Assembly (NCBI GenBank): GCA_008632985.1
Contig: QPGO01000110.1
Span: forward strand, 62,001 to 126,000
From: Psammoneis japonica
Taxonomy: Eukaryota
Length of the DNA stretch: 64,000 bases
Reading direction: 5' to 3'
The stretch's first letter is position 1; each line of letters opens with the position of its first letter. The position numbers and the translations under genes are program-made. Under the pieces are notes generated by a model. The model ran no database searches. It saw only the letters and a program-made list of their open reading frames with translations, and was not told the origin of the DNA. Below are positions 2,916 to 57,509 of this stretch, one piece after another.

Positions 2916-5149
2916 ATTGTTGCCTCTGTGGAGAGGTAGCAGCTCTCCGGAAGAAGGTCGACAAAAACTTCTTCGTTTCCTATAGGTGCCAACTTACTTT
3001 CCTCTTTGAAGAACAGTGAACTTGTATTCGACATGAATTGAGCTCCCGTCGAAATAAGAATCTTGCTTACGCTCCTTCGTCGCCCGTCTTGTGATAGGTT
3101 GCCTTTCCGGCCTTTTGCTTGTTACTCTTCTTACCAGCGTTTAAAGCGTCAACGAGTTTTGATCGGCAGCGATAGCTGAGTTGGTCAAATCACTTGAGGA
3201 CCCCGAACTCGTTGAACTTGAATCCTGTTTCGAGTCATCGGATGAGCTCGCTCGGCGGGTAGCATGTCGTCTGGTCCGTGCACGGGAGAGCTTCTCCAGC
3301 TCCTTTGTTCCGTAACGGGACAGCTCAAACGTACGGTAGTCGCGTGGCAAAGATATCCTGATCCTTGTGCGCTTTGTGCTGAAGAAGACGCTTGCCGACT
3401 CTCACGTTGTAATTCATACCTTGACAACTCTGGGACCTGCTGGCGAAGGAATTCGCCGCCCTAACTATACAACTGTTTGCCGTTCCACTCTGGAAAAGCC
3501 AACTTCGGCCCAATCTACAAATCCATTATCAGAAGAGTCGATGCTTCGCTTCGACGGCTGCTTATCTTGGATTGCGAGCATTATTTCTGGTTCCAAGAGA
3601 AGCATAATTCCATATCGGTCGAATCCAACGAGGCCCTTCTATTGTTACCTCCAGCAGACTGCTCATAGCGATGGAGTGCCTCTCGTTCACCTTTAGACAG
3701 GCCCAGCTCCTCCCAACCCACTGAACTTACTCATATCTGGGTTGTAGATCAAGTCGTCTGCACAAGAGTTTAGCAATTTCTTTCCAAGACACTGCTTTCG
3801 ATGCAGTTCGGTTGAAAACGCATTCAGGAAATGACCTAAGGTTGATGTACGCTCATCCATTTGAACCAGCGGGAGGATGGTTGGCTCCTGTATCAATCAC
3901 ATATCAATCTTGCCATGTTGGCCATATGAAAAGTCAAGAGTTGCTCGAAGCTTCGTCCAAGCGATTCCTGTCCTAGCGATAAGGAGGCCATGAGGCTTCT
4001 TCTTGCTCATCATGGATTAATGCTTTATCAAATCATGACTGAGTGCCACGTTAATGTCGTCGTGGGCCAACATTGACTTTTTCGGGTGCTTGAATCCGTA
4101 GCATTTCCAATCTTATCTTTTGTGATTAACTGCCACATGGTGACTCTCGAGATGAATTCGATGACGCAAGTACGTTATCGATTCGCAGACTTGAAATATG
4201 ATGTCTGCAGCACCTGTATCCATTCCTATTGCAAGGTCAGTTGAAAAGGCTTAACATGTCACCAATAATCCTCGATTAGCGCTGCAGGGATAATTTGCTT
4301 GGAAGGTGTTGGCATTGTCTCTGTATGGATGCCAGAGTTATTCACAGGAGAGCTCAGAGCTGAAGAGTTTGATTTCTCCTTTCGCCCCGTTATCATGAAT
4401 TGCTGCGATACACCAGATGCATGCTGTCCTTCTCCGTATTGCTATCATTACTCGTCTTGATACGAATTATTCTCAATTTTCTAATTGCTGCTGTTCTTGT
4501 CGCTGCTGTCGCTCTTGTCGCGCTTGCTCTTGTAATAATCTTGCAGCCTAGAGGCGACAATCGCTTCAGGTTTCTCGTGAGAAAACAAATCGTGTCCTCG
4601 CTTCTCAATCTTTCGTACACTGGAAAAGTGCAAAGGCCAACAAACGTACTCTAGACGCTACAAATACTTGTGTGCGAGATCCTCCCGGAATCTTCTTGAC
4701 TGCGCAGAAAGTACGGTAGATGAATGAGAGAATGGTGAGACGCGGACGAAAGAAGATAGAGCTGCGTCTCATAATCTTTTTAAAAGCTAATTAACTTACT
4801 CAATGTTTCAAGCCCCATGTGTCTGTTGCGCTTGTTGGTTGCTGAGCGGGTATGTTTTGAGTTTGATGTCCGCCATGGTGACCTGTACCAATTACAGACC
4901 TCCCAAGCCGGGAGTGCTATGTCATCGCATCATCGCCACGCATCATCAATCGCCATCGTGGTCTATGCGTCGACCGAAAATGCCTAAGGCGCTCCGATAA
5001 CACCCGAACACCGCACCGCGATCTTCAACTTTGTCCAGATTGCCATGTCCAGGTTGCAATCATCATCTTCAAACACTTTGCTGAGCACTTCCATGATGTG
5101 TAGATGAGTGGCCATAATGTGGTTCTCTTCATTTTTCGTGGTGTATCTG

Positions 5150-8100
5150 TCCTGTCAAAATGACATTTGAGGGCGAAGGTGTCTGTGTCGTGTCAGTGAG
5201 ACATTTCAGGGTGTGTGAAGAAGTGCTCTGCTCGCCCTTGCCACACACTTGCTCTGGAAACAGGAAGAGAGAGAGACTGGGCCATTGGTTGGGGGCTCTG
5301 ACTACCCAACTTGTGGGTGGAAGACAAGAATGGCTGCACCACCCCTTTGCTGGGAATGCAAGAGCGAACTTCCGTGAAGCGGGGGTTGTCTGGCTTCCTG
5401 AGTTGGCAGATGACTGCAGCCATTTTTGATGGAGTGTCAAGCCCCAGAGACTCTGGCTCAGTGGAAGCAAGAAAAGCTGGGGAAGATGTGTGCTTGTTGC
5501 CTGACAACCCCTTTGTCATTCCTTGAACCAATGCAACAACAAAACTCTCCAGTGCCAGCTTGGCGGTGAGTGACCCAAAAATGGGCTGTTGGGGCTCATC
5601 TTTGAGAATGAGGTCTGCAAAGCAGGTCTGGCTGCTCTCGGTGTGTTTGGCACCAAGGGTGACATGGAATGCTTTTCATGATCAAGGGTGAGCAGCTGCG
5701 GCATCAGGCAGCCATTGCTTGCTCTTGTGGTGCTCAGCTCAACTTGAGAAATTCTCAAGCATTTGGTGATCTCTTTCTGAAGCTGCCTGTGCTGAGCCAA
5801 GTCATTTGTTGTGTGGCCATGCAGGCAAAAATGCACCAATTTTGAACACTCTGCTGCTTGAGAGCTGAATTTTAGAAATTCTCAGTGCTTGTCCTTGACT
5901 GTGAATATAGCTGGTCAATGCCACCAACCCCCCAGCACTGGCCAAGTCAGGCTCAACATTGTGTTGGTGGCCCTTCATGTCAGAGAAAGGCAGCTCTTCC
6001 TCTTGCTTGTTTCCTGAACATGCTGTCATCCTCTTGATTGGCAACAGCTTTGTCGCAGGCACCCCCCATCCACGCGGCAATGGCAAATTGTTCCCGGTCA
6101 GGACATGGGGGTGGCCCATGATGTTTTGGAACAATTGCTCAAGGGATGCTTCTTTGCTCTTGAGGGCCAGCAAGAGAGAGAAGCTTTGCTTCAAACCTGA
6201 TCCAATGATTGCAAATTGTCCTGTTCTTGGATGCTGGGATTGTGCCAAAGACTGGTGTCTGCTGGGGCACTGTCAAGAGTTCCCTCCTTGACTTGCTTTT
6301 GTCCTGACACCCAGCCTCCTCTTGGTTCTGCTTTTGTGGCAGCCAATCTTGACGGACATGGCAGCCCTCCTCTCCTTCCTTGCCATCATTTTGGACTGGA
6401 CAGCCTTGGGCAACTCTCTCTCTCTCTCTCCTTGCTTGTTGGATGACTTGGCCAAAGAAATCACTCGTCAGCTCTTTGCTGGTGCTTGTTTTTTTTGTTT
6501 TTGAGATGTTGGCCTCCTTTCTGACAGAGGAGCCTTCATGCTTTCATCACTTCAGGATCCATCCTTGGCAAGCCTGTTGCCTTGGTCTTGACAATCTTTG
6601 TTCCTGAGTTTTGTTGGAGATGAGTTTGTCCCCTGCTTCAGTGCTGACAGGCAGTTTTCTTGGTTTTCTGCGCAAATTTCTGTGCTTCTCTTGCAAAAAC
6701 TGAAAAGGTTGACCAGTGCATCAGAGGGGTCATGCACCTCACAGGTCTGATTCATTTTGCATCTCCTCATTGCCCACAAGGTGCTCAAACCATCACATCT
6801 CCAGAGGAGTTTTTTGGGAGCTGCTGTGCTCTCCCAAAAGTTGTCTGGTGGCTGGTGCTGCCTTTTTAGAATTTTGACTTTCCTGTCCAAGACCAAAAAA
6901 TGGCTGGCTGTTTGCTCACAGCTTTTTTTTGTGGAACATCATGTGTGAGATGCTGCTTTAAAACTGAGCCCATCAGAGTGAGCCACAAAATTTGGCGACA
7001 CCAACCAAATGACAGCGATGGCATTTTTCTCTCAGCTTTTTCTGCTTGCTGCAACCCACAACTGCAAAAACATGCACAGCAGCATGGCTCAACAATGCAA
7101 AGAAGCACCATGGGAAAAAAGAGCAGACACAGACACAACATGAGCATGATGGGAAATCAGCCACAGACAGCTGATGCATGATCAAAAGCAAAAAGAGCAT
7201 GTCCACTCATGAGAATCTCAGACCTCATCTCTGAGTTGTTTTCCAATCACTTGTCCTCACCAGAGAGAAAGAAAATGTCAGGAGATTCAGTGTGGACACA
7301 GGTCATTCCAGCCACACAAACCTCCAAGTCAGTGGCGCTGCTGCAGTTGCCAACAAAGTGAGATTGGGCTCTGACAATGGGCTCATTGCAAGGTTTTGCT
7401 GCTGAGTCTTTCATGCAGTTCTTGATTGCACAGAGTGTGGAAAAGGATTGAAAGTCAAGCAAGCAAGGTGCTGCTGTTGGCCTCAACAGCTCACAAGAAA
7501 GCAGCAGCAAAAGCAATTTGAAAGTGCAGGGGGCTCACAGCATCTGTTGCATTTCTGCAGTGCAGCCACATCATGGAAGGCAAAGCACAAGCAAACACCA
7601 TTGCTTGGGCAATGTGCCTGATTGGCAAACACAGGAATTTTTCTTCAGCACAGTCCTTCCATGAGCCACTTCATTTGGAGACAGAAAGATTGTGCGGATT
7701 GTGTCAAGGACCCTCCACATCATGAAGGGACTCTTGCACTTGGATGTGGTCTGGTGGCAGTGCTGTCCACATGACCTCACAGTGGGAGAATCCTTCCACT
7801 GTGCTTGCTGCTGGTGGCAATGACATTGTCAAAAAGGCAGCCAAGTGTGCAATGGCCATGAAGCCAGAACATGGGCCCATGCAGCAACTCACGTCATGGA
7901 AGACATTGCACACATTGGCATCTTGCATGTGGCAAAAAGTCAGAGAACATGAAGGCATGCAACAGGTGTTGCATTTCTTGGCATTGCTGCAGCGATGACT
8001 GCCCTGCCAAGGATTGGCGCAAGAGCCACAAGCGTGCAATGCAGCCCGCTGGAGGCCATGCCACAAGGAGCAGGCATTTCATGCACGTCAATCTCAGCTT

Positions 8101-8234
8101 TACAAATGGCGGCTTTGTGCACCTGAGGGACATGTGCCTCCAGAGGCTGCCAAGACATGTCCACATGAATCACCCAACATGCATCTGTGCAATGTCAAGC
8201 CAGACAACACACACTGCAACTGTCCGTTTTGCGT
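5150..8234. other. TpA- and CpG-depleted degenerate domain (decayed repeat/gene copies), host site of Copia element 1
   Basis: Only about 7 TpA in ~3 kb by manual count; strong TG/CA excess; overlapping Cys/His-rich, Tyr-poor ORFs. Confidence 0.8.
7915..8045 (+). pseudogene. MYND-type zinc finger remnant
   Basis: ACGKKSENMKACNRCCISWHCCSDDCPAKDWRKSHKR matches the MYND spacing C..C..CxxC..YCSxxCQxxDW..HK. Confidence 0.6.
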
Positions 8235-8403
8235 TGACAGACATCCGAGATGGGGAGTGCACTCCCTTGTGTCGGACAGACTGGCACAGACAGCATGGAG
8301 AGATCCGATGATCTCTCCTTTGCTCACTTTCTTTCTCATCTAGTGCACGATTGTCATCTGTCCTAGACATCCGTTAGATTGTCCCGATGCCGCTAGTCCG
8401 CAA
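8235..8403 (+). repeat. 5' LTR of Copia element 1
   Basis: Direct repeat of 15148-15320; begins TGACAG, ends CCGCAA. Confidence 0.95.
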
Positions 8404-8413
8404 GGTTGTGAGC
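8404..8413 (+). other. Primer-binding site (half-tRNA-iMet type), mutated
   Basis: GGTTGTGAGC directly after the LTR; one TA->TG change from GGTTATGAGC, the complement of the tRNA-iMet anticodon arm GCTCATAACC. Confidence 0.7.
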
Positions 8414-8843
8414 AGCAGTGTGCTGTTCCTCTTCTTCTGTGCTCCTCTGCTGCAATGCCCGTTGTGTGGTTTGGCGACTTTTTCTTCGTTGAAATCGTCA
8501 TCATTGTCACAGCCATTTTTTCACCTCTCGATTTGTGATCAAACGACCACCGCAGAACACATGCCAGAGCTCTGCGCAGGAATTTAATTTTTTTCCCGCG
8601 CAACCATGGTGAACAAAAATCAAAATGCCGTCGATTTGACCAAGATCAAGTCGATGCTGGTTGCATTCAACCCCCAGCATGGCTTGCCAGATGCCCATCA
8701 TTGCCTGAACATCCTTTGTTCCGACGAAGACACCTGCTCCTGAAGAACTTCTGGATGGATTTACTCCTCAAGGCCTCAAGAGCGATGCCACCACTGCTCT
8801 CCGTCACAAGATTGTTCATGACCTCATCATCCCCAAGGCTGCC

Positions 8844-11800
8844 TTGACTGAAGATCTCACACGGATTGGGCCGATCATGGACAAAGCTCCTCTCTTTGTG
8901 GCTGCTCCAGAAGCTTCTCTGGTTCATCTAAATCTTGCCAATCTTCAGAAGACTGTGATTGGCATGATCTCAGATGGTCAAAATGCCACAACGGTCTGTG
9001 TTGAGACCATGTTTCTCTTCTTCCGTCCTGATTTCCCGTCGCATGCATGTTGGGACGACATCTCGGATGCTCCACATTCAAAGACATCTCCAACCTCAAG
9101 TTCTGTGCCTCCACCGGTTGCTGCCACAAGTCCCACTCCTGAAGACTTTGCCAAGGCCTCAGCTGCTCATTTGCCTGGTCCAAAACAGTTTGAGCAAGCC
9201 ACGACAAACGCACTGAAGAACTCTGCTCCCAAGACATCATCTTTTGCACCGTCTGCCATGACTGCTGCTGGTGCGGCTTCTTCATTGACTGCTGCTAGTG
9301 CTTTGCACACCTTCAACCCGAAAGGACTTCCAAAGGATGTGCTGGCTTGCCATCAATGCAAAGAAGCCGGGAAAGCAGTGCTCGGAAAATCACTGGCACC
9401 TTGCAAGTCTGGAAACCTTTGTTGCAAGGACGGCACTGAGCGTCTCATCCTTGCCGATGGTTCTCTCTTTGTTCATCACACTGACTGGGATGCAAAGTCT
9501 TTCCTTTGTGACCCCCTCACTTGTGATGACATCTCTCCTCAAGGAATCCGTGCATGGCACACTGCTGTCACCCAACAAGCCTCGGCTTGTGGCACACACA
9601 TGCATCCTCTGTGGTGTTTTATCAAGGATGGTGGAAACTGGGGTTTCACCTGTGGCAATGATCCAACCGATGATCCACCTCTCCAAATGACGGCGGCACT
9701 TGACTGAATGAAACTGACCATCTTCCAGCACATTCAGAAAGTTGGAATTTTTCCTGCAGACTCCAAATGCCCTGACATTGTTCGTCAATGCTGTGGTGAT
9801 GGATGTGTGGCTGTCAAGATGATTCTCTTTGACATCCCACTGATTTGGACGAAGCGTCTGCATGAGTTGATCAAGAGCCACCCGCACCAAAACAATCTTA
9901 CGGTCCTTAGCTGCTGTGCTCCATTCAGAGACTGCCTCCAGCTACGATCCATCATCTCCAATGTTGATGCCTCTCTTGATGACCCTGGTGAGCTCGACAT
10001 CTTTCTCAGCAACACCCACTGTGGCGAGCACCTTCACCGTAAAACAGCGGATGCCCGGGAAGACAAGAACCAACAACACAAGTTCACCCAGAAGAAAATT
10101 GTTGAAACTGTCAGTGCGATTCTCAAGGAACCGGACAGCCCAGCTCTTCATGTCAAGGACCCTCCCAAATGTCCTCCACGTCGTCTTCACACTTTGCCTC
10201 CTCCTCCTCTCGCAGCTCCTGTCCGCGGTCTTGACTTGCTTCCCAAAGATGAAGTTTCTACTCTGCCTCCTGCGATTGAGGAGCCTCCCAAGGCAACTGA
10301 ACCTCCTGCTGTGGAAGAACCTGCGGAAACCATGGAGCATTTTGTGAATGAACTTGCTGCTGTGGATGTTCCTGCGCAGATGATGATGCACAAGCCCTCC
10401 ATGGTGTCCACAAGGCCTGCATCCACAGGATCAAGTCCTCTCCTGCCATTGCACAGAACCGTCCATGTGTTGTTTGTGGCAATGACCACTTGTTCCATGA
10501 GTGTCCTGTGTTGAATGATGCTGAGCACCTGCGCACTCATCTCATTCAGTTCTCCCAGTTCCTTCAATGTGATCAGCGTGCTCGTGATGCACCCAAGTCT
10601 GACACGGCCAGAAAGGATTTTTCCCAGGGCTGTTGTCATGTTCGGACACACAATGCCGCCCATCCTCCTCCCATCCAAAAACTCCTGCAAGCGGGGCAAC
10701 TGTGAAAGAGGGTCCAACCGACTCGTTGCCTTCCGCTGATGCTCCTCTTTCACCTGTCTCATTTGCCAACCTTCTTTTGGGCTCGACAAAGGCTGGTGCT
10801 CCTGATCCCAAGACGATTCCTGATGATGACCCTGGTGATCATAATCAGGGGAGGGCATTAGATCCCTCTACACTGGATGCTGCTGTTCCATTGTCTGCTG
10901 ATCAAGACCAAGAATTTGAGCATCTTGATGTGACCAACACCCAGCATTTGTCACCTCTCAGTGCCACACGCATCTCCCCAATTTTTTCTCCCCCGGAATC
11001 ACCTGCGACCTTTGCATCCTTGACTGCTCCAGTTGTTCCCATCAATCATGTCCTTTGTGATTCAACGATTTGTCATGCACAGATTGATGCTGGCACTTGG
11101 GCATCCTGTGCAGGGGACAAGAAACTCCTCCATGCCCATGCTCCCTTTGGACCGGATGATCCTTGTCCTTTGAAGATGCTTCCTGCTGCTGAAGGCTCTG
11201 ATGTGGTTCCTCATGGCTTTGGTTGTCTACAGGTGCCTGCAGACAATCCTGAAGGTTTTCTTCTTGTGCGCACCTTTTGCCATCCCAGCCTGCGTTCCAC
11301 TTTGATTGACGAGCATGATTTTGCGCAGGCTTCTGGTTTCAAACCTCAGTCCATTCGCTCCGAGCTTCTTGAGAAGACATGCGCCGACGGCACTTGCACT
11401 TACACTGCTTCCACTGATGCTCAAGAGGTGGTTGTCCATGGCACACTTCGACATGGCAAGGTCTTCACACAACCCCTGGTTCCTCCGTCTGCGTCCAATG
11501 TCCCTTCGACATCACTGACTCCTGACTTGTCCTTGGTTGATGACACTGATGATGCCTGTCAACGTGCAGTCTTTTTTGTCAACATCCAACAAGGTCCATC
11601 CGATCCCTTGCTGATGGACACAGAGCTGTTTTCCATGCAGTGTGACACAGCTCCCAACATCTCCCCTCCATTGTCTGCCTCTGCTCCTGTCCGCTCTCTC
11701 AAAGTTGAGACTGAACGTCTTCCATGGCATCAACGCCTTGGACATCCCAGCGATCACTGTTTGTGCCATGCTCACAAGTGTGTCAAGGGCGTCCCCAAGT

Positions 11801-14800
11801 TTTGACGTGCCAATCCTGTCCTTGACATGTGCCCTGCGTGTGTTCAAGCCAAGCAAGTCAAGACTCCCGCTGGTCCAAACATGACTTGGAAGGCAACCCA
11901 GCCATGCCAAGGTCTCACTGTAGATTTTGCTTTTGCTGGCCAGACTTCCAAGAATGAAGACCGCAAGGTTGATTGTCTTGGATGCAATGGTGAAACGTGT
12001 TGGATTGCTGTCTATGATCATCACACGCGGATGCTCCATGGAGCAGCGAGGGTTTCCAAAGCCAGTCCCCTCAAGTGGCTTTGCCGATTCTTGGATCGAC
12101 ATTCACCAAATTGTTGTGACAAATGTGTGTTTGTGGACCAAGGTGGGGAATCATGCAAAAACCCCAAAGTTCGTGACCTCTTTGAACGCGAATTCCAGCA
12201 TGACATCTGTCCTTCTGGCACTGGTGCATCCAACCAATGTGGACCTGTTGAACGCTCACATTTGACTGTTGAAAACGCGATTCGTGCAATTTTAATTGGT
12301 GCCAACCTTCCGATTCGATTCTGGCCCTGTGCATTTTGCCATTGCCTCCGCATCAAGAATGCTGCTCCTGCAAAAGATCAAGATGCGGCACCCATCACTC
12401 TTGCCACCGGAAAGGTCGAAGATTTTACTGCTCTGAAGACTTTCGGATGTCGAGCATGGTCCAAACGGTCCACTGCTTGTTCTGCCACCTTCCGGACCAA
12501 TTCCAAGAAGGGCACATTCCTTGGTCACCTTCCAAACACCCTCAAGAATGTCATGTGGTGGGATCCTGAGACTGACAAAGTCAAGACGGCCAAGCATGTG
12601 TGCTGCAATGAGGGCATGAATGACCTGTTTTTGGATCAACTCCCTCCCAATGCCATCCATTTGCAGTGTGTGGAAAATGGTCAGCCTTTTCCAGCTGAAA
12701 CACAGGACACCACCGTTCCTGTGTTCACGTCTTCGTTGAATCCTTTTGCTGCGACTGTCACATGTGCCATGAAACGTCCTCCAAAGGACCCCACTTGTGG
12801 TTTTGGATTTTCCCAGTGTGCGCTGATGGACCGTGTCTGTGTGTCGGAAATCAAGCAGCACAGTCCTGCGGCTTCCTTGTTTTCTTCCCTCCGTGCTGCC
12901 CGCAACAAGATTGTGGGTGCATGCGTTGTCTCTGTCAACAAGCGTGAAGTCGTTGCTCCATTGGATGCTGAAGAGGCCTCATTTCAGGTCTTCCATGATG
13001 AAATCCCAACTTTCGAGATTGCTTTTGCGCCGGAACGACGATTGGATTCTTGCACCCTTGACAAGGCATTTGAGGAAGCAGAGTCATTTGCACCTGACTC
13101 CATGGAGGACGACTCCCATGTTCCCGAACTCACTTTGGAAGATGTGCGATCTGTTGCGGCTCTTCTCCATCCTGATGATGATTTTTTGGATGAGGCCATC
13201 CCTGCGGATGTCTTCTGTGCACATCTCAATGCGATTGGCTCCCGCTCTCTCACTCCGGAGGAAGCTGCTCTTGACCGCCTCACCCGTGCCAAGCTTCATA
13301 AACTTGACACATGGCCTGAATGGGAAGAAGGCAAACAGCATCAATTGGATCAATTTTGTGCCCTTGGCATGTGTGGTCCTCCACAGCCATGTCCCCCTGG
13401 TGCGAACGTCATGCGTCCGCATTGGGATCACATGGTGAAGCCGGATGGACAACGTCGTTCTCGGCAATGTGGTGATGGCTCCAAGTCGGCAATGCCGGCC
13501 TTGCACAAGTTGACTTCCACCTGTTTGTTGTGTGTGGAACGCTCTGTCGAAAAGATGTTTTTTGCTCTCAGCGCGGCTGTGTTGCATCATGTCTTTGGTG
13601 GTGATGCCTGGGATGCCTGCGCTCATTCTCCTGGTCCTTCCCAGCAGGTTTTTGTTGCTGTTGATGATGCATGTGCCACCTGGTGTGAAAAGAGATTTGG
13701 CAAGACAGTGCCCCACCATTGTGTTCTTCCGCTCAAGCATGCTCTTCAAGGTCATCCTGAGGCTGGTGTCCTCTGGGAAAAGCGCATCAATTCGATTCTC
13801 ACAGGTGCGAAACTTCTTTTCCACAATGCTGCTCACGACAAGTGCATCTGTTCCGGTGAATGTGATGGTGTCAAGGTCCTTCTCCTTTGTCAGGTCGATG
13901 ACTTTGCTCTTGCTTGTCCTTCTGAAAGGATTGCAAAAGAGATCTACGACCATGTTGGCAAGGCTCTCCAGATGGAGAATGAGGATGCTCCTCCCTTTAA
14001 GCATTTGGGCTTGGTTGCTGAATTCAATGGTGTTGATGTCATCCAAAATGACGATTCAATTGCTGTCAACATTGCCAGTTGCCTTGACCGTGTTTTCAAG
14101 ACACATGGTTGGGATGCTCCTGCTGCGCATGAGTCTGATTCTGATTTCAAGGCTGCACCTGTTCCGGTTGATTGCACTCCTGATCTGCACGCCACTGAAG
14201 GTCCTGAAGAGGGCACACCTGAGTGTGACACTCTCGCTGAGTCCCAGAGATTCTCTTGCCATTCTGTTTTGGGTGAGTTGGTCTTTGCCTGCTCTTGTTG
14301 TCACTTGGACATTGGTCATCCTGTTGTCACCTTGTCCAAGTTTTCCAAGGCCCCGGCTGAGCTTCATTGTGATTCACTCAAGCATGTGGCCAAGCATTTG
14401 TGGTGCACCAAACATTGGGGGCTGACGTGTGTGAAGTCTGGGCGCGATCCCAGTCTGCCTCCTTGCGATTTCAAATGGCTTGAGGATGACCCATCTCTCC
14501 TGGACTTTCCTTGTGCTGAAGACTTTTTCCAACTTCTTGGTTTCATTGATGCGGCACATGCCAATGAACTGTGGCGTCGCCGTTCTGCTGCTGGACATGC
14601 GCGTGTCCTCCTTGCTGGTGCTGCAATTGACTGTCGATGCCGCGCGCAAATGATTGCGCTGCCAGTTCCACGGAAGCTGAGTTTCTCGCGGCTGTTGCTG
14701 GTGTGAAACAGACCCTGTGCCTCCGCATGGTTCTGGAAGAACTGGGCTTTCCCCAGCGTGATCCTGCTCCCTTGCACATTGACAACTCCTCTGCTGTCCA

Positions 14801-15005
14801 GATGATCAACAACAAGGTGCCTGCGGAGCGATCCCGCCACGTTGACATTCAACATTTTGCTGTCCAAGACTGGCGTGACGCAGGCAAGATTGTCACTCGA
14901 CACATCCCGGGTGTCATCAACCCTGCTGATGCACTGACCAAGGCTGTGGGTTGGGTGCTCCATTCCCGCCATGCTGCCTGCCGTTTGATGGGACATTGCC
15001 GTTGA
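8844..15005 (+). pseudogene. Copia gag-pol (gag, GAG-pre-integrase, integrase, RT, RNase H), broken by stops and frameshifts
   Basis: WHQRLGHPS pre-integrase motif; integrase DFAF..DQGGE..VERSH; RT QVDDF; RNase H SSTEAEFLAA..IDNSSA..RSRHVDI..NPADALTK. Split across ORFs 8844-9707, 9708-10514, 10633-11805, 11827-14706 and 14637-15005. Confidence 0.9.
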
Positions 15006-15137
15006 TTGTTGTTGGGTTTGTTGTGGATTGAGTCTTGGGTGTGTCTCTGTTTTATTTGTTTTTTGTCTTTGCCATTCTGGTCCTCTCTTTTTATTCGGAT
15101 CGTCTCTTTCTTTCTTGTTGAGCATTGCAATGCTCAT

Positions 15138-15147
15138 CAGGGGAGGG
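15138..15147 (+). other. Polypurine tract of Copia element 1
   Basis: CAGGGGAGGG immediately upstream of the 3' LTR. Confidence 0.8.
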
Positions 15148-15320
15148 TGACAGACATCCCCGAGATGGGGAGTACACTCCCTTGTGTCGGACAGACTAGC
15201 ATAGACAGCATGGAGAGATCCGATGATCTCTCCTTTGCTCACTTTCTTTCTCATCTAGAGTACACGATTATCATCTGTCCTAGACATCCGTTAGATTGTC
15301 CCGATGCCGCTAGTCCGTAA
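15148..15320 (+). repeat. 3' LTR of Copia element 1
   Basis: Direct repeat of 8235-8403; begins TGACAG, ends CCGTAA; followed by TSD TGCGT. Confidence 0.95.
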
Positions 15321-16999: not shown

Positions 17000-19010
17000 A
17001 GAGCAAGCAGAGAGGGAGATTCCGTTGTCCATCGCGAGCTTTTCACAATCTCATCTTGCACACAGCACACAAAAATCTTCGCAACACAACCCATCGTGTG
17101 ACGGCGGCACTTGTTGCTTTTTCTCGTGGCTGGAGCGCCGCAGCTGACGAGCCCCAGCTCTGGGTGGGACTTCGCACTGCCGGACTGCAGCAAGAGAGTT
17201 TTTTGGTCATGCACCACACATGGTGTCCAAACATTTCTGTGTGTGTGTTTCTGCAACACTTTTTGATGCTCCCTGTTTTGTGAAGAACATGAAGCCAAAC
17301 ACAGTGCTTTTTTCATTCTGCCCATTTGTGAAAGCAAAAGTTGGCTGGGCACATTCTTCGATGCCCACAGAATGTGCCCAGCAAACTGGAAATGATGTCC
17401 TCCAAGAATGAAAGAGGAGGATGCAATTGCAAAATTGCCCCCTTTTTTCTGTTGGTGACAGTTGACATGTTGATCACCAAACAAATTTCTTGCTGCGAAG
17501 CTTGCAGAATTCAGCATGTAAAAGCCCCATGGAGTCCCACCCAGTGCTGTCTGTGCAGCACTCAGCATGCCTCATCCCCCCCCACACAACTCAACATCCT
17601 TCCTCGCACACTCTTTTCAGTGCTCAACTTAAGAAACTTGCGCTCCAGCTCTGGGCAGAGTCTCTCACACTGCTGGGCTGTGACATCAATTGCTTTTTTG
17701 TCATGTGCCACTTGTCTCATGCATGTGCACTTCTGTTGCAACTTTGGTGGCAATTTTGCATCATTTTACAGGGAAATTGTTGGGTGGTTCATTCTCAATG
17801 ACTTTTGACATTTGGTGGGTGGGCGGTGGTGCAGTGCAGGCAGACTTTCAAAAATGACAAGTGCAAACCACAGGTGCAGCTGTGTGATCCCCTGGCATTT
17901 TATTTTGTGACTTTTTGTGCTTTTGAACATGTTCCAAGGTGCTGCTGATCTGGTGGGTCTGACTGCCTGCCATGTGATTTGAGAACTTCCTGACCACAAT
18001 CTAGAAAAGTGCTGGCCAGCAAGCTGGGTTTGCACCATCATTTTCAGCTCAGAACAAACCCCGCACAAAGGGCCCTGGTGGAAACTGTGCTCCACTTTTT
18101 ACAAAATTGGTGTTCTTGCCCACAATCAAAAAGCTGGTGCCATCCTTTGTTCTTGTTGTTTTGTCGCTGCAGCATCTCTTCACTCTTGTGTTCAGTGCAA
18201 CAACATGCCACCTCCTGAAGACTTGCCCTTCCCTTCATCTGACACTCTGGTTGCTGATGCTTTGAAAGCACAACTTTTGCCCCTGCTTGTGCCATTGTTG
18301 CTGAAGATGTGCATTTTTTGCATCCTCAAATGTTTTTCTGCATCTGGCTTGCTGTTGATTGGCTCAGCTGGATGGCACGAATGTCAACATCTTTCCATGC
18401 TGCAAGAACCATGTGTCACCATGTGTGTTGTGCCTTGTGTGTCCCATCTGATTGTGGCACACCAAGGTCTTTCACATTGACTTAAGCCAAGTCAACCCAC
18501 CCACTTGAGGTGAGTTGGCAGGCTGTTCACTGCGTTCCATGCCAACCATGCCAGTTTCAGGCCCAACTCATCTCAAGTCACATCTCATGGCAAGCAGCAT
18601 GTCTCATCAGATTTCACCTTTAAAAATGCCGGAGTTCTCTTTCACATTGACTTGAGCCAAATGAGCTCATCCACTGAAGGTGAGTCAGCATGCTGTCCAC
18701 TCCATTCTGCACCAATCAGTTTCAGACCCCACTCATCAAGTCACATCATGGCAAGCATTGGATGTCACCTTTGAAAATGCCAGAGTCTCTTTCAAATTGA
18801 CTTGAGCCAAGTGAACCCAAGGCAGAGTCGGCAGGTCACTCACTCCATTCTGTGCCAATCAGTTTCAGGCCCAACTCATCAAGTCATGTCATGGCAAGCA
18901 TCAGATTTCACCCTCTCTGCATCAAGGCATTCGCTTTTGGACGAACCCCACATCAACATTTCCGGTGCACCACATTCCTGCGAGTTCTTTGGTTGATCCA
19001 TGGTGAGCTT
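17000..19010. other. TpA/CpG-depleted degenerate domain of unidentified repeat
   Basis: Abrupt loss of TpA between two normal genes; contains a tandem repeat. Confidence 0.7.
18471..18912. repeat. Three degenerate tandem copies of a ~150-170 bp unit
   Basis: TTCACATTGACTT(A/G)AGCCAA...CAGTTTCAGGCCCAACTCATC recurs at ~18471, ~18641 and ~18791. Confidence 0.8.
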
Positions 19011-19243
19011 TCATAATTAGAGGCCTCTTGCCCGTCGCATCAAGCAAGCGATTGCCTTACGAATCTTGAAAGACTTCAAAAGGTACAGTATAGAACTCGC
19101 ATTAAAATCATTAGAAAGGAATGTATGAATCTTAACGACTGACGATACCCAGAGCAGACGGCATTTTTGTCAGCCCACAACTCCCAAGCTAAGCATCGAC
19201 ATCAATTCTTCTATCATTTGTCACTTGACCAATGCTGCTGCCT

Positions 19244-25680: not shown

Positions 25681-26729
25681 ATAGAAACGACGACATCAAA
25701 GTATTCAACGACATCGCAAGCGCTACGACCGCCATCGTTGTCCACAGACATACGCACGGAATAAGTAACGCGCAAATAAAGATTGCTATATTGTACTTTT
25801 AGTCTTTCTACTTCTATTGGGAAAGTTTCAAAGAGTGTTTCAAATTTGCTATTGAAATGGTTGCGTAGGGTAACGTTGCCTCAAGAGCTCCATCAAAAGA
25901 TGGCGCTCAAGCTTTTACGTATCTTATTCAGAGAGAAAAATATCACTCTAAAAAATGTAAAAGGGGGGACGTACTACGGAGACAACAAGAAAACTTGCGA
26001 GTCAACCGCGTGCTAAATCAACACTCCCTACGAGTGAAGACTTACCGTATCATGTCACTGATACGACGGAACCCCAAACCCGTGTTCCGTCAACGGTGTG
26101 ATCTGCTTGGCGAGCTTTTGCTGCTTCGCAGATGAACGCTGCTGTCTGTTTCAACAGCCGTGACCTGACGGGTCAAGCGAACAGGCAACTTCCTGCGGTC
26201 AAAGACACAGGAGCAACATGGACTCCAGGCCGGAGACACGCATTCGATTTGCCCCGACCTCCGGACTTAACTGGCAACACCTGCGCCACCTGGCGACAAC
26301 ACGCCATCAAGCTAAATGAGTTGTGGAATGCCAAACGAGAGCGAGTGCTCAATCCAGAGGAAGGGCGAGCCATCCTTGGCGATTACGGCATTCAGGCTTG
26401 GCAAACAACAACACTCGTGCGAGACGACGAGTTGTGATCGAAAACGAGCGCGAAATTCCGACTGTGTCGTGACCGTTGCTATATTTCTCAATCACTATCA
26501 TTTTTGTGTGCTTTTGTAGAAGTAATACCATGATTTCGTATGTAGAACATTCGTTGGGACTTGGTACTTTACAAATTATTACTAATTCCTACGTAGACCT
26601 TACGGTTGCCGTACAAAACGCCAGAAAAAACTGCCGCCGATGCGTCTTCCTTTGCGCGCGCGCGCCGTTGTCAAGCAGGTCCGTCCGTCCGAGCACCACC
26701 AGAATTTCATAATGGCATGTTCATAATGT

Positions 26730-27950
26730 GACGATGCCCTCCCTTTTCCCCGTGCCGATTCTCTCCGTGCTGCTCTCTCTTTTCTTAACCCTGTGAATGA
26801 TCCCTCCTGCAATCCAGAGCTCACTTCTGGCATCCGCTTCCTTGGACAACCTCTTGGCTCCCGAGATTTTGCCAGTTCCTTCCTGTCTGGCATCTCCTCC
26901 ACTCTCTCGCACAAAGCTGACATGCTCCTTGCTCACCTTCACGACAAGCAAACTCAAGGTCAACTTTTCAAGCACTGCTTCATTCCCACCTTGGCTCACC
27001 TCCTCGGTGCCAACTTCCACTGCAACTTTGATCCCAACAATCCCTCCGATCCCTTGCTTTGGAGACCTCGCCCTTTCAAGACTCGCTTCTCACCATCACT
27101 CACCGCTTTCTCTGCTGCATCGCCTCTCATGCTGCTCCTTTCCCTGATCACTCTTTGGCCACAGCCTTTCTCCCAGAGCATTGCTTGGGGGCCTTGGCCT
27201 TTGAGACCCAACGGCTGCTGCCATTCCATCGCTTGTGTGGTTTCCTTGCTTCGTTCATTTTGCTTTGCCTCTCACGGCATCAAGCTGCCACCAGGTGCTG
27301 CAATTGCTCTTCCTCACTGCTTTGGGGTTTCTCTGTCCTCCTGGCACAACCCTTGATCTGCCCTGTGACTCTGCTCCATCTTTTGCCACCATGCCTCGAT
27401 TCTTGACTCTGCTTCTGCCCTTTCTCCTGCTTCCTTGTCTGCGCTTGTCAAGTCTGCTGCTCTTCCTGGCTTGGCTCGTTGGCTGCATCATGATCATCAG
27501 CAGCATTCTTGCTGATGCCCCCTCTGAAATGCAGATCTTCCCACCTTTGCTGCTGTCTCCGCTTGCCAGTCTGCCTCTTCACTCCTTCTCCCGCCGCTCT
27601 TCAAGTTCCCGCCTCTCTTCCAATGTCTGCATCATTGCCATTCAATGCAAGCTGCGTCTTCCTGTCCTTCCTCCTTCTCTTGTTGACACACCCTGCTCTT
27701 GTGGTCACACCATTCTGGATGCTTGTGGCGACCACGCCTTCTCTTGCCGTGGCACACACAAGTCCAAACTTTTCAATGGCCTGTGTGACACCCTCTTCAT
27801 TCCAGCTCAAACTTTGGGCCCCCTTGCTCAACTGTGCTGCTCCTCCACAGACGTCCACCTTGAACCCCTCAATTTGCTTCCTTCTCAGCCTCTCCTTTGC
27901 CCTGCCAATGTTGGCACATCCGTTGCATTCAGCACACTCCGCGATCTGTG
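26730..27950 (+). mobile_element. Non-LTR retrotransposon remnant (RT C-terminus + Cys/His knuckle)
   Basis: GIRFLGQPLGS (RT thumb-region motif) and CSCGHTILDACGDHAFSC; frameshifted; TpA-depleted. Confidence 0.65.
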
Positions 27951-29799
27951 CTGTGTCACAACCAAAGCAAAAGAAGAATGGAGCACTGCTTGGAACACAT
28001 CAACTGTGTGGAAAGCTGTGTCGGAATGCTGCAGTGTGGTGTCCACTGCGTTTGTCTGCTTCAGCTGCTGCATGTTGTCGGGAGTGGAGTTGCGCTGCCC
28101 TCAGCAAACCTCTGGAGTCTCAACCTTTGCTGTCTGCATTCACCAACACAGCAAACTCCATCAAAAAGCAACTGCCCAATGACGTGGGCAAATGGAGACA
28201 ACCTTGCACGTGCCGAGTTCTCATTGCTTGGTGCTCACAGAGCATTGATGCCAAGGAGACTCAACTCCAGTCCACCTGATCTTGACAGAGTCTGCAAGGG
28301 CCAGCAGCAGCTTGGGCATTTTCTGCACTTCTCAAGACAAGCTTGTGAGTCTGCAAGAAGAACCATCTCTAACATGTTTTGGTGCTTGTCAAGAATGAAA
28401 CTTGTCAACAAACAAAATTGTTGCATGCGTGCTGTCTCTGTCCACTGATCTTCAGTGTTCTCACTTGCCAATTGTGCATTCTTAAAATCATCACAAATGT
28501 GCCAACTCTGCCCAGTTGTCAATTGTGCATTTTTACAAACTTTGGGTCACAAATTGTTTGACCATTTTTTACCTGCGTGGCCCGATTCGCGGTCGGCGGA
28601 CACACATTTTTTCACACCACACCACAGACACCAACAGCCGCAATGTTGTTGACACGACCCATGTCAACAACATTGCAGAGGTGAGCTCTTTCTTTGTTTT
28701 CTCATTTTGCACCAATTGCATGCTCACTGAAGATGTTGTTTGTGCTTTGTCAAAGCTTCACAGGTGGGTTGATCGTCTCGTGCGGTTGATTGTTGCATCT
28801 GTGATGTTGGTGTTTTTTTCGCGGCATTTGCACCACCACAGCACATCCGTTCGGGAGCCTCATGCCTCGCCCCACTCTGCACCCTTTGGTGCACCTGTTG
28901 TGCATGTTGGCATGGATTTGTCATGTGCTTGACATGTTTTTGAAGGTCTTGGTTGGCTTGCAATCACAGCATGTCGTTTTTCGGCCACAACAATTTCTTG
29001 AAAGTGCGCGCCGTGGGAACAAAACAATGCGATGGAGTCTTGGGGACACTCATGACGTTGGCGTTTGTCAGACAGCCTTCCCACAGTCCAAAAAAGGTGA
29101 TCCTGTGAGCACAACGTAATTGTTTGAGCATTGGACTCGTTTTGATGAAACTTGCACACCTCACAAGCCTTTTTTGTGCGTCTCGTTCATGTGCGCAGGT
29201 GTCTGGTCCTTTTTGACCCTTTCTTCCTGCTCTGCAATCGTGTTGTTTTTATGATCTGAGACACAATGTCTCCCCCACATTGTTTTGGGTGATCTTGTCA
29301 GCACAACTGCCAGACTGGGTTTTGCGCTGGGCAAAACAGAGAAGTGGAGGCTTGTGTGGCCGGGCTCCTTGCCTTCTCTTGGATGTGTGGATGCAACAAT
29401 CTGCTGGCGGCATTTGAGGCCATGAAATTTGCCAGGGTGACTCAGAACTGCCTTGGAAAGGTGCCCTGGTGAGCACACTGTGACATGTGGCCTCAATGGA
29501 TTGTTGTTGTGTGTGTTGTTCCACTCACATTTTCATTTTGCCTGTCATGTTTTCAGCATGATTGTCTGGGACTGCAAGTGCTGAAAGTGGCCTTTCCATG
29601 CCAACACTCTGCATGACACAAAAGTCCGTTGACAACACTTGCATGTTTGGGGAATCAGATCTTGGAGCTTTTGGCATCCAGCCGGGTCTAGAGAGAAGCT
29701 CCTGACCATGGCTTTTAAAGTGTTGCCTGGGGTCCACTGCAGACATTCAATGCATGGTGTTTGACAACAGTTGTTGGGTGGGTGGGTGCACACATGGTG

Positions 29800-31220
29800 C
29801 TGTTTCACTTCAGAAGTTGGGAATTGAGTCTCACCCTGACATTTTGTGAAGTGACATGGGCTGCAGCTGAGCCAGCCTGGCGGCAAAGGAGGTTCGCAGC
29901 TGTCTTGGGATGGCATTGGAGGACTCCAGTGGGTCCCAGAGGATGCATCAACAACAATGGTTGGGAAGCAAAGGCCTTGTCTTGTGTCCACACAGCCCTT
30001 TGTCTCTCTGACATGACTGGGTTCCTTTGCCCAGCCACGCCACCTGCAAAAACAAGAAAACAATCTGTGTGACAGCACAAGTGCTCTGTTGTCTTGGGGT
30101 GGCCTTGGAAGACTCGATCAGGACCCAGAGAGTGCAACAACAACAATGGTTGGGAAGCAAAGGCCTTGTCTTGTGTTGGTGTGGCACCTTGTCTCTCTGG
30201 CATGGCTGGGTTTGGCCCAGCCAAGAACCGTCCTGCTGCAAGAAAGATGAGGGAACTGTCTGTGTGACAGTGCGCAGGCACTCCATGTTGTCTTGGGACA
30301 TTTGCAAGAGACTTCATTGGGTCCTCAAGGAGGCAACAACAACAGTGGTTGCAAAGGAAAAGCCTTGTCTGGTTGTGAGTTTGGTTGCATGTCTTGGTGT
30401 CTCCAACTGGAGCAACAGGCTTGCCGAGGGGTGCGTGGCACATGAATGATTTGGGGAGCTGCAAGCCATGTCTTGGGCAGCAGCAGCAGCCCCTTGCATG
30501 ATCCCTCCACACAAGAAAATGCCTGCACAAGGTGCTGTGGGGAGGCATCAGCCAACCTGCAAAGAAAAGGGAGCCATCTGTGTGATGGTGCAAGCACTGC
30601 ATTGTCTTGGGATGGCTTTTGGCAGCTCAACCTGCAAGAAAGACAAGGGAGTCATCTGTGTGACAGCGCAAGCACTCCGTTGTCTCAGGATGGCTTTTGG
30701 TGGCTCAACCTGCAAGAAAGACAAGGGAGCCATCTGTGTGACAGTGCAAGCACTCAGTTGTCTGAGGACACGCACAAGAAACTCTGTTGGGTCCAGGAAG
30801 AGGCAACCACAATGGTGGTTGGGAAGGAAAAGCTTTTTGTCTTGGGCCAATGCAGCCCCTTTTCTTTCTGATGTGATCGGCTTGCTTTGGTGATGGAGCC
30901 ACCACCCCACCTGCAAAGGCAAGGGAGCTTTCTGCAGACAGTGCCAGTGCCCAGATGTCTTTTGCTGGCCCCTTGGGTGACTCCATTGTGTCCCAGGAGA
31001 GCCAACAACAACCTTGGTTGGGGAGCAAAGGCTTGTCTTGTGTCAACAATGTGGCCCCTTTTCTTTCTGATGACATGACTGGGGCCTTCTTTGGTCCAGC
31101 CAATGCACCTGTGCAGATGCCATTGAGCCATCTGTGTGACAGCGCAAGTGACCAGTTGTCTTGGGATGGCTGTTGGAGGAGACTCCATTGGGTGCCAGGG
31201 CATGCAACAACAATCATGGG
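29800..31220. repeat. Degenerate tandem repeat array
   Basis: Recurring motifs CCATCTGTGTGACAG(C/T)GCAAG, ACCTGCAAGAAAGA and TGGTTGGGAAGCAAAGGCCTTGTCTTG. Confidence 0.7.
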
Positions 31221-34200
31221 AACTTTGTGCCAGTGCATGAGATTGCAATGGCTGAAGGCAGAGTGGCACAGGCCTGCGTTCACATGGTCCACAGTGGCTT
31301 TGTCATTGTGAAGGCAGCAGCAGTGGTGGCAGTTGCTGGGTTTGGACCATCAGCCAGTGCTGCAACAGCTCCAGCAGCAGAGCCTTGGTTTCTCTGAGGG
31401 CTCCTGCTGCTGAGCTTTTGTGGCTGAGATTGAGCTTGAGATTTGCCAGCTCAACCTGCACAGCAAGACTGTGAAAATTTTCATCTTAACAAGAACACAC
31501 TGACAAGATGAAAACTGTGCAGCAAGACTGTGAAAATTTTTGCATCTTGGTGAGAACACATTGACACAATGAAAGATGAGAAATTGACCGACTGCCGACA
31601 CACGGCACACATGCAAAACCCAAATGACTGGATGATTTCATTGAGTCATTTCAAATCATTCAAACCTTCAAAACGGAATGTGAGCATGGAATTTTAAAAC
31701 AAAATTGTCACTTAAAAAATGATGCTGACAGGAATCACCAGGCAGACAGGCTCAACATTGCTGCAAAAACACGAGCCATCATTTCCTCACAAGACACCAA
31801 ACACAAAACACAGGGTTTGTCAAACATCATGACAATGATGTCAGCAGCAAGGGAAGGCAACAGAAGAGCGCCAGGGGGAGGAGGACAATGCAGAACACAA
31901 GGCAAGAGAAAGGCAGGAACTGAGTCTGTGAGTGCATGGAGTTTGGGCAACAATGCAAACAACTGGCACTTTGGCCAATCTTTCAACTCAGACGTTGTGA
32001 TGTTGATGACATGCAAAGGCAGACGGAAGGGAAGACGGCCCTGCAGGGGCCACACAAAGGTGAGCAAAGCACATTCGAAACAATGCAAATGCAATGCTCT
32101 CATCTGTTGCGTGCTCTTTTCTCTTCTTTGCAGGCGATGCTTTGGCAAACTGGTGCAAAACACGAAAGAGACATGGTCGCGTGCAAAGGTGAGCAGAAGC
32201 GCTGTTTTTGTCAAGACAGCCAAGCCCACGCAAAAACCAAACATGTGCAATGCTCTGATCTGTTGCAAGCTCTTTTCTCTTCTTTGCAGGTGAAGCTTTG
32301 GCAATCTGGCATGACAAGCAAAAAAGAGACAAGGTCACAACACGGAACGAACGATGGGATTTTGTGCATGGCGAGCGAGAGTGGATGCAAGGGACAGTGA
32401 AATGAGTGAAGCATCATGCCATCACTGCGGCATGGGAGAACTGGCAGGAGACAGGAAAAAGCCAAGGAGGGAAGAGCAGGAAACAGGAAGCAAAAATGCG
32501 TTCACTGCAGAAATGACAAAACACAGCTGGCACAATCACATTGCAAGAAACACACAGCCAATGTGCGAGCATCTCAATGCAATGAATGAATGTTGCAGTT
32601 GTCAGAAATGAACAATGTTGCAAAGCAGTTGCAATTGCACCCTTGTCAAGAAGTTTTGTTGACAATTGTTTCCTGCTTGGAAGGTCGCATCAATTGTGAG
32701 CGTGAGCTGAACAATTTTAAAATCATTGTGGTCGCAAGGCCAATCTTGTCAAGATTGAATGAAGAATTAGAGTCATTTTCATCAAGTGCCAAATCCCACT
32801 TGGCACATTGAAACAATCATCAAAATCAATTTGTGCACAGTTGATGAGCACTTGTTAAGAACACAGGATTCTCAACAAGAGCAAAACGAGTTCTGAACAA
32901 GAGCCATGATGTTTTCCAGACGACACAACGGCAGAAGAAACAGATGATGTGAGTGAAGCAAGCAGGGGCACATGGTGAGACACTGCACAGAAACACCCCA
33001 AAACATCTCAGCACTCACCCTCAAGAATCGTGATTCTGAAACATGACATGGTGAGCTAACTTCTCACACTGCTGGCATCAAAGAATGCAGTTTGCTGCGA
33101 TGGAGTGTCTCACTCTGCTGCAACATTGCAGCCATGCTCAGCTCTCATGAAATGAAAAGGCTGTGTTGCAAAATGAAAATGACAATTGAAGCAATTGCAG
33201 GTGGCTCAGCAGCTTTGAATGAATGATGAATCACTCAGCCAGCATCCTTCAACTTGCCATCAATTGTGAGCAGATGAGCACCCCCTCCACCTCTTCTTCA
33301 CGCTGGTCATCCTCATTGTTGTCATTTGTTTGATCAGCTGTGAGCAGATGAGCATCCCCTCCACCTCCTCTTCATGCTGGTTGTCCTCATCATTGTTGTT
33401 CATTTGATGTGCGCTTGAACTGTGATTTTTGAGAAGAGTGAAGAAGATTGCCAAAGAGAGGGAAAAAGAAGCCAACATGCAAAGACTTTGCTCCAGCACC
33501 AAGTTGCACACAAGCTGACAATTCCACAAAAATGCTTGGAATTCCACGATGCTTTTGTCCATGCTCTCAAACAAAAAGTCTCCATTTCTGACAATGCCAA
33601 ACACATCTGAGTCCTGGCACACAAGAGACTTGACACACACGCGCTGATGACCTGGCTCTCGCTCCAATCTTGTTTGACATGTTCAACCAAAATGCATCTG
33701 CTGTGGTGTCAAAAAGGAGAGTAAAGAGAAGAGACAAGATTCGTGATCAGCACAGCAAGACTCAATGGTGCACCTCTTCACCATTGCCGTTGCTTCCACA
33801 GTTGCTGTGCCGGAAGAGCCGGCTGGCAGGAACAACCAGCAGTGCCATCAAAAATGTCACTCTGACTGCGCAGCAGCGGCATGCTCTTGGGCCACCAGCC
33901 ATGCCACACTCCGTTGCTTGATGGAATGCCGACAGTTGTCAAACGCCGTTTAGTGCATTCCGTTTGTCATCCCGGAATGCAAAGAGAACGATGGTTGCCG
34001 GCACACGGAATGTGCTTTTCACATTCCTTGAGCAGCCCCCCTCGAAATGGAATGTGAGGCGCATTCCGTGAAAAGAGGCCTCCATACGAAATGTGCAAAA
34101 ATGGCCTTATTTCTTACGGAATAGCTCAGCGGAATGTGAGAAAAAGGCTTATTCCGTGCATTTCCGTGAAGTCTCAGCATTTTGCTGTCATGTTCATTTT

Positions 34201-50676: not shown

Positions 50677-50953
50677 TGACAGAAAATGAAGGCAAATGGC
50701 AAGAATTCAAACAACAACTCCTTACTGCTGTCTAAACAGCAGATGAGTCTCCGCTCAGAGACCGTCACAGGAGCCGAAAGACGTGCAAGTCGGTGTGATC
50801 GGGCTGCTGTCATTGTTCTTGTGAGCCTTGTGGCTCGAAAGCAAACTGCATCGCGCGTGAACGTTGCAGAACTAAAGCACACAAAACTGTGCACGGTAAA
50901 CTAAACAGCGCACGACACTTCGCGCGCACCTGGATCCTGTTCAAATCCTGTCA
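50677..50953 (-). repeat. 3' LTR of Copia element 2
   Basis: TGACAGAAAAT...ATCCTGTCA, repeat of 57510-57785; adjacent purine tract AAACTGGGGAG on the minus strand. Confidence 0.95.
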
Positions 50954-57498: not shown

Positions 57499-57509
57499 GA
57501 CTGTTAATC
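57499..57509 (-). other. Candidate primer-binding site complementary to a tRNA-Asn(GUU) anticodon arm
   Basis: Minus strand reads GATTAACAGTC directly after the 5' LTR, the complement of GACTGTTAATC. Confidence 0.55.

Follow-up and report, generated by a model that had tools for sequence, protein, structure and literature searches.

TpA hypermutation of Copia retrotransposons and other repeats, with site survival graded by the flanking bases

Introduction

What removes TpA dinucleotides from some stretches of a genome, and why do a few of them stay behind? These questions are raised by a 64-kb stretch of DNA (hereafter the window) in which the observed/expected ratio (O/E) is 0.36 for TA, 1.39 for CA, and 1.44 for TG. 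An initial annotation of 8335..8403 (+ strand), the 3′ part of the 5′ LTR of a Copia element that we call E1, had noticed that the few TpA sites left there are mostly YTAR, the context with no TAY on either strand. It took this as a sign of an enzyme-like sequence preference.

Hypermutation of TpA has been described before. A preprint on Bigelowiella natans (B. natans) reports that viral DNA integrated into the genome is hypermutated locally from TpA to TpG/CpA, de novo and very rapidly in some cultured lines; of the 231 de novo mutations in two viral inserts, 230 were A→G/T→C, every one at TpA (10.64898/2026.01.13.699255). In the same alga, TA-poor coding sequences were enriched for reverse-transcriptase and DDE domains, and the authors name an ADAT2 homologue as a candidate agent (10.64898/2026.01.13.699255). 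The main text of that preprint gives no flanking-base rule (10.64898/2026.01.13.699255). Our literature searches found TpA hypermutation described in this preprint only and the flank rule nowhere, and a term search of papers on diatom transposable elements returned no mention of repeat-induced point mutation (RIP), hypermutation, or deamination. The hypermutation itself is thus already known; what is new here is that it targets LTR retrotransposons, in what is probably a different lineage, and that it follows a flank rule.

Results

The LTR pair of element E1

E1 lies at 8235-15320 on the + strand, between target-site duplications (TSDs) of TGCGT at 8230-8234 and 15321-15325. Its interior (8404..15147, +; TA O/E 0.06) holds a Copia polyprotein frame interrupted by a few stops, in which Pfam recognizes SH3_retrovirus and, weakly, RVT_2; a protein search gave 85 Copia homologues. 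The 3′ LTR (15148..15320, +) has kept all 10 of its TAs and was used as the ancestral reference. In the 5′ LTR (8235..8403, +), 6 of the 10 ancestral TAs are now TG or CA. The changes are GTAC→GTGC twice, CTAG→CTGG, ATAG→ACAG, TTAT→TTGT, and GTAA→GCAA. All 6 substitutions between the LTRs are of this one kind, and the remaining differences are two 2-base indels. The direction is A:T→G:C, restricted to TA, and both strands are affected. Since the two LTRs of a single insertion differ and the 5-bp TSD is intact, the changes were made after insertion.

Exactly four TAs remain in the 5′ LTR, all within 8335-8403, with their T at 8341, 8364, 8375, and 8394. These sites read CTAG, CTAG, TTAG, and CTAG, just as first annotated, and all are YTAR. 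The alignment of the two LTRs also bears out that 5 of the 6 mutated sites had TAY on a strand. YTAR was kept at 4/5 sites and every other context at 0/5 (one-sided Fisher p 0.024).

The interior of E1 was examined at the protein level. Alignments with the E2-type metagenome loci described below were not usable for E1, and the protein search was used instead. A position was called conserved if Tyr was present in at least 60% of 82 Copia homologues. At the 31 positions so defined, E1 now has 19 Cys, 7 His, 1 Tyr, and 4 other residues, which means that 26/31 have become Cys (TGY) or His (CAY).

TA-poor domains in the window

Segmentation with a two-state HMM called five TA-poor domains with sharp edges. 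TA O/E is 0.04-0.17 inside these domains and 0.53-0.95 outside, and CA/TG O/E inside is 1.3-1.9. Inside the domains, AT and GC dinucleotides show no depletion where they are clear of a TA, and GC content is not lowered.

The first domain (5145..15052; 33 TAs in 9.9 kb; O/E of 0.06 for TA, 0.40 for CG, 1.56 for CA, and 1.73 for TG) consists of an older stretch of no assigned identity (5145-8234) and of E1 to about 100 bp short of its 3′ LTR. The second (17000..19013; 8 TAs) has internal direct repeats and is without a Pfam match. The third (26725..34084; 18 TAs) contains a tandem array at ~29.9-31.2 kb. The fourth (50554-57026; TA O/E 0.17) covers most of a second Copia element, E2, and is normal in CpG (0.91). 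The fifth (57749..63440; 17 TAs; CG O/E 0.17) has tandem repeats at 58.4-58.65 and 60.6-62.1 kb; here, as in the third domain, all Pfam matches are below cut-off. Copia LTR retrotransposons, recognized by Pfam RVT_2 and SH3_retrovirus, are thus found in 2/5 domains (E1 and E2). In the other TA-poor stretches, the Pfam search placed 0/60 ORFs above cut-off and gave three weak matches below curated thresholds. The insertion point of E1 is the junction of the TA- and CpG-poor stretch 5145-8234 (CG O/E 0.15) with TA-normal DNA from 15326, and the edge of the older domain coincides with the E1 insertion site (8230-8234 / 15321-15325).

Four of the five domains are CpG-poor too (CG O/E 0.17-0.40). 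The CpG decay in these four runs faster where the flanks are A/T, and its contexts in the TA-poor domains show no TCG-specific signal. A single enzyme acting on both TA and TCG was considered and is unsupported, the CpG decay being without such a signal. Because the decay is missing from E2, is faster in A/T flanks, and lacks a TCG signal, we infer that cytosine methylation drives it in the older domains, separately from the loss of TA and more slowly.

Loss of TA removes TAA and TAG, and the changes can create no stops; therefore 30 of 42 ORFs of at least 200 aa lie in TA-poor domains. These ORFs often overlap on both strands.

Element E2 and its family

E2 (50677..57785, - strand) has LTRs at 50677-50953 and 57510-57785 and a TSD of GGTGG. 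It carries an open frame of 1928 codons (window 50901-56687, -). At 39 conserved Tyr positions, E2 has 16 Cys, 8 His, 10 Tyr, and 5 other residues. At control loci from five unmutated relatives, Tyr was kept at 176/209 positions, with 0 Cys and 8 His. As 24/39 conserved Tyr in E2 are now Cys or His, it is a hypermutated copy, presumably dead despite the length of its frame. Dead elements that keep very long frames are an annotation trap and would mislead gene callers.

Within E2, a TA-normal island of 722 bp (57027-57748, TA O/E 0.95) covers the 5′ LTR and leader. It lies between the mutated E2 body and the old TA-poor domain; E1 spares its 3′ LTR instead. Two ideas about such spared ends were rejected. 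Mutation spreading from the neighbouring old domain does not agree with the E2 end beside that domain being its least mutated part. A link of mutation to element polarity does not hold either, as E1 spares the 3′ LTR and E2 the 5′ LTR and leader.

The E2 family is very abundant. Contigs from four sequencing runs of one sample (14,938 contigs) have a summed depth of ~5e4 to 2.6e5 on E2 vs 59 on unique flanks, a sum that shows abundance and is no copy number. Variants in the family (run X1) are overwhelmingly transitions, with 98 A>G, 96 T>C, 77 C>T, and 61 G>A, next to 30 transversions.

Survival of TpA depends on the flanking bases

The counts behind the flank rule come from the window, 69 metagenome loci, and the sequencing-run contigs. 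The metagenome loci encode relatives of the E2 polyprotein, and they were used because host DNA may poorly represent ancestral elements. Forty-two of the 69 were taken as unmutated Copia relatives (TA O/E at least 0.6 and CG O/E at least 0.8). This baseline holds 9153 TAs, of which 15.2% are YTAR and 36.1% are RTAY, the context with TAY on both strands.

In the four old domains, meaning all but that of E2, the 76 surviving TAs are 40 YTAR, 34 with one TAY, and 2 RTAY. The 1368 TAs of TA-normal segments are 225 YTAR, 703 with one TAY, and 440 RTAY. The two distributions differ strongly (chi-square p 1.8e-16), with a Fisher odds ratio of 5.6 for YTAR (p 3.5e-12). The excess is seen in each old domain, at 14/33, 4/8, 13/18, and 9/17 in order along the window (each binomial p < 0.03 vs 0.161). 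It was therefore correct that surviving TpA sites are mostly YTAR, and the manual count of about 9 YTAR among some 15 TAs in 57800-63300 was close to the exact 9/16. The initial expectation that roughly a quarter would be YTAR was too high; the proper figure is 16.4% (225/1368) or, from the Copia relatives, 15.2%.

The skew holds against the Copia baseline as well. The E1 interior has 7 YTAR, 15 one-TAY, and 0 RTAY (p 0.001), and the other old domains have 29, 19, and 2 (p 7e-17). In E2 the skew is weak, both against the Copia baseline (YTAR 11, one-TAY 27, RTAY 7; p 0.012) and against TA-normal DNA (YTAR 14/50; p 0.05).

Survival is graded. Per kb and relative to TA-normal DNA, it is 0.006 for RTAY, rises to 0.063 where one TAY is present, and reaches 0.232 for YTAR. 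These absolute values are approximate because the ancestral composition was inferred from proxies and CA/TG gains exceed the losses; computed from host DNA, whose background density lacks the counts of 1-5144, the CA/TG gains are greater than the losses of TA and CG together. By context, TTAA survives best at 0.43 (20 kept), followed by CTAG at 0.17 and CTAA/TTAG at 0.15. We also fitted a model that assigns every 3′ base a single dose, applied to each strand; the doses are 0.42 for TAA, 1.12 for TAG, 1.83 for TAC, and 2.76 for TAT. The model fits the counts (X2 15.7, 12 df) and improves greatly on a uniform dose (likelihood-ratio test 91.6, p 1e-19). At the scale of the window, then, the NTAN contexts are depleted unequally inside the domains relative to the DNA outside, and the graded survival and the dose model both support a preference of the enzyme-like kind first proposed. 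The robust rule is strand-symmetric, with RTAY the most vulnerable context and YTAR the least.

The same rule can be followed outside the window. Three metagenome Copia loci (L032, L036, and L016) are TA-poor. L032 and L036 belong to the same family as two copies with 94.5% likeness, and their pooled survivors are 19 YTAR, 17 one-TAY, and 3 RTAY (p 8e-9). In L016, which is only mildly depleted, a context bias was not significant (p 0.14). Conserved Tyr is now Cys or His at 17/20 positions in L032, 15/20 in L036, and 15/30 in L016. This damage means that the process also operates in organisms other than that of the window.

Which strand and which base are changed

Survival counts are strand-symmetric, and they therefore cannot tell whether the A is edited in TAY, the A is edited in RTA, or the T is the base that changes. 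Only the products at asymmetric sites discriminate between strands, where TAY→TGY predicts RTAR→RCAR and YTAY→YTGY. At RTAR and YTAY sites in the LTR pairs, the TAY-strand product was found 10 times vs 3, and all 3 exceptions are in one LTR of E2. Conserved Tyr codons that follow Y in the window have become Cys in 22 cases vs His in 6. After R, the corresponding counts are 13 vs 9, as expected where TAY is present on both strands. Pooled over the window, the events favour TAY→TGY by 32 to 9 (p 4e-4). Among 40 of the 367 variant entries for the E2 family, the TAY-strand product is found at most asymmetric sites; at 3 sites among the same entries, the E2 copy of the window itself has the disfavoured product.

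Ratios of 4-mer products, (RCAR+YTGY)/(RTGR+YCAY), are 1.16 in E1, 1.15-1.65 in the old domains, and 1.0 in the E2 interior. The comparators are 0.83 for the Copia relatives (0.58-1.13 per locus) and 1.22 for host DNA. The TA-normal host segments, in which TA O/E is 0.53-0.63, thus have a higher TAY-product ratio than the unmutated Copia relatives. Weak genome-wide action of the same process on host DNA is possible.

The metagenome copies do not follow the strand preference of the window. In the three loci, Tyr codons after Y have become Cys 8 times vs His 14 times, which differs from the window (Fisher p 0.004). L032 alone shows the opposite strand rule (Cys 1 vs His 7). Product ratios of the TA-poor metagenome loci equal the baseline. 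Products at asymmetric sites in the L032/L036 pair are split 13 vs 11, a biased comparison, as sites at which both copies have the same product are invisible in it. Because the TAY→TGY bias fails in these copies, we take the symmetric rule as the robust one. The reading centred on the A of TAY is likely for the organism of the window and is not general.

These statistics bear on what the agent does to the DNA. Our explanation of the whole, which we consider probable, is a DNA-level hypermutation of TpA to TpG or CpA after integration, with a flank rule and carried out by an enzyme that is likely an adenine deaminase. The data show A:T→G:C changes in sharply edged domains that cover retrotransposons as well as other degenerate repeats. 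In these domains RTAY is nearly always destroyed, sites with one half-site are usually destroyed, and YTAR, above all TTTAAA-like sequences, survives best. The enzyme would be drawn to the chromatin of silenced repeats and attack TpA steps there. It would most likely deaminate adenine to inosine, which is read as G, with a 3′-pyrimidine preference of TAT >= TAC > TAG > TAA. Deamination of adenine is the simplest chemistry.

An alternative that we regard as unlikely, yet worth serious attention, is centred on thymine. The T of TpA in silenced repeats would carry a modification, made for instance by a TET/JBP-type dioxygenase that yields 5hmU and oxidised forms, and would give T→C with a 5′-purine preference (RTA→RCA), the mirror of TAY→TGY. 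Oxidised 5hmU derivatives mispair with G. No sequence statistic used here can tell the attacked base of a pair from its partner, and the alternative explains the data equally well. It also has a precedent in dinoflagellates, where 5hmU made by a TET/JBP homologue is enriched in repeats and silences them, and where inhibition activates transposons (PMC11572971). However, our search of that study turned up no T→C hypermutation arising from 5hmU (PMC11572971). The authors of the B. natans preprint favour adenine deamination, with the ADAT2 homologue as a candidate, and offer no experiment either way (10.64898/2026.01.13.699255). We retain adenine deamination as the preferred reading.

Wider context around the survivors

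The bases beyond the immediate flanks are also skewed. Survivors have A at +2 in 55% of cases vs 27% in the background, T is enriched at -2 and -3, and A is enriched at +1 too (p 2e-18 and 7e-13). The surviving sequences are often tttTAaaa or ttttTAc, and surviving TAY often has a T-run upstream. This enrichment of T- and A-runs would be expected if the recognition site were longer, and equally if DNA shape or chromatin gave protection.

It could be argued that DNA shape or chromatin explains the whole flank rule. Junctions of T-tracts and A-tracts would be protected, for example by poly(dA:dT) excluding nucleosomes or resisting base flipping, and the agent would need only TpA. The T at -2/-3 and A at +1/+2 are what this predicts, and TTAA, the best survivor, fits it well. 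Several contexts do not fit. CTAG and CTAA/TTAG survive well without A/T tracts, and the four survivors in the E1 LTR have no tracts either. The dose for TAG is also smaller than those for TAC and TAT, though TAG and TAC are both G/C-flanked. An account by shape alone is therefore improbable in our judgment, and a base preference of the agent remains the better explanation of the rule.

Surviving LTR sites are ancestral

If surviving YTAR sites were new TAs, formed by later C→T at TCA/TGA or CAG/CTG, then they would say little about protection. The candidate precursors CA and TG are very abundant in the TA-poor domains, and 57 of the 76 survivors contain TTA or TAA, which would suit such an origin. 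The LTRs argue strongly against it. Each of the 9 TAs that the mutated E1 and E2 LTRs still have is matched by a TA in the partner LTR, and the LTR survivors are for this reason ancestral. The 11 retained Tyr codons (E1 and E2 together) sit where Tyr is conserved. Random back-mutation of CA/TG would be expected, from arithmetic on the old-domain counts, to give ~24% YTAR and ~24% RTAY, against the observed 53% and 3%. We find it very improbable that the surviving YTAR sites arose in this way rather than by being spared.

The last alternative, ADAR-like RNA hyperediting before reverse transcription, or else chance or compositional bias, hardly deserves any weight: although ADAR does favour U 5′ of the edited A (PMC10661471), the comparison of two differing LTRs of one insertion places the changes after integration and refutes it, both strands are affected, the domains include DNA without recognisable retroelement genes, the ADAR hot spot UAG (PMC10661471) is among the best survivors here, chance is ruled out by p values of 1e-12 or better, and against bias stands the mere 15% YTAR in the 42 unmutated relatives.

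Discussion

Comparison with known systems

RIP is a genome defence of ascomycete fungi in which C→T changes at CpA give rise to TpA and to stop codons. The process in the window resembles it in using one transition type at one dinucleotide in repeats, in acting on DNA after insertion, and in the sharp edges of its domains. Unlike RIP, it destroys TpA (TA O/E 0.04-0.17), raises GC, and creates no stops.

The closest likeness is to B. natans. When tested in the window, the changes proved to be almost exclusively A:T→G:C, at TpA only, and in foreign or repeat domains, as they are in that alga, and the long-term signature is likewise TA depletion with CA/TG enrichment. The targets differ, being giant-virus and virophage inserts in B. 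natans and Copia LTR retrotransposons and repeats of no assigned identity here. For the host sulfotransferase gene and for E1, every named homologue comes from a diatom, with an identity of no more than 59%, and no identical protein is on record; we take the organism to be a diatom-like stramenopile. Going by these protein matches, the lineage of the window is probably different from B. natans. Our findings would then extend a defence known from one preprint on one alga to the LTR retrotransposons of an apparent diatom relative. A bolder proposal, which we put forward only tentatively and hold to be rather doubtful, is that TpA hypermutation is a RIP-like defence common to distant SAR lineages (a chlorarachniophyte and a diatom-like stramenopile), with an enzyme that reads double-stranded RTAY and turns A:T into G:C on either strand.

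Of the clues to the agent, the sequence rule is the most direct, and known adenine deaminases can be compared with it. The core motif of bacterial TadA is UACG (PMC11472039), and an engineered TadA-8e variant edits A in YAC (PMC13109818). Natural TadA is inactive on DNA, and EcTadA is not mutagenic in E. coli (PMC10354150). Deamination of A in DNA has been reported for one eukaryotic ADAT2, that of amphioxus, whose preferred contexts are GAA for A and TCG for C (PMC10354150). Like TadA and ADAT2-ADAT3, the agent in the window would have T/U directly 5′ of the edited A, as all changes are at TpA. Unlike TadA, it shows no preference for C at +1, since TAT (2.76) receives a dose at least as large as that of TAC (1.83), and TACG is without special depletion (5/28 surviving TAC vs 182/807 in the background). 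Naming TadA/ADAT as the agent is speculation, as the initial annotation itself allowed. ADAR shares with the process in the window the clustering of A→G in repeats and the preference for U 5′ of the edited A. Unlike ADAR, which acts on RNA with a 5′-UAG hot spot (PMC10661471), the agent here would under-edit TAG and act after integration on both DNA strands.

Taken as a clue, then, the rule argues against ADAR, misfits the TadA core, and suggests symmetric recognition of RTAY. If the bolder proposal is true, cells would have their own DNA adenine editor or thymine modifier, one of an uncharacterised kind, with the flank rule as its identifying fingerprint. A natural enzyme that makes A:T→G:C changes in double-stranded DNA would also interest those who work on base editing.

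Other features of the TA-normal DNA

The TA-normal DNA at 34-50 kb contains an intron-less ORF of the SNF2 helicase family (604 aa, 41828-43642, +). Its nearest Protein Atlas clusters are mostly viral (Uroviricota and Nucleocytoviricota), a match at the level of the family, and from this similarity the ORF may belong to an insert of viral or mobile origin. Inverted repeats are found nearby in 39573-41636, where 40098-40373 pairs with 41144-40867 at 97.5% and the wider arms at 73-84%, and direct repeats are present at 41009-41325.
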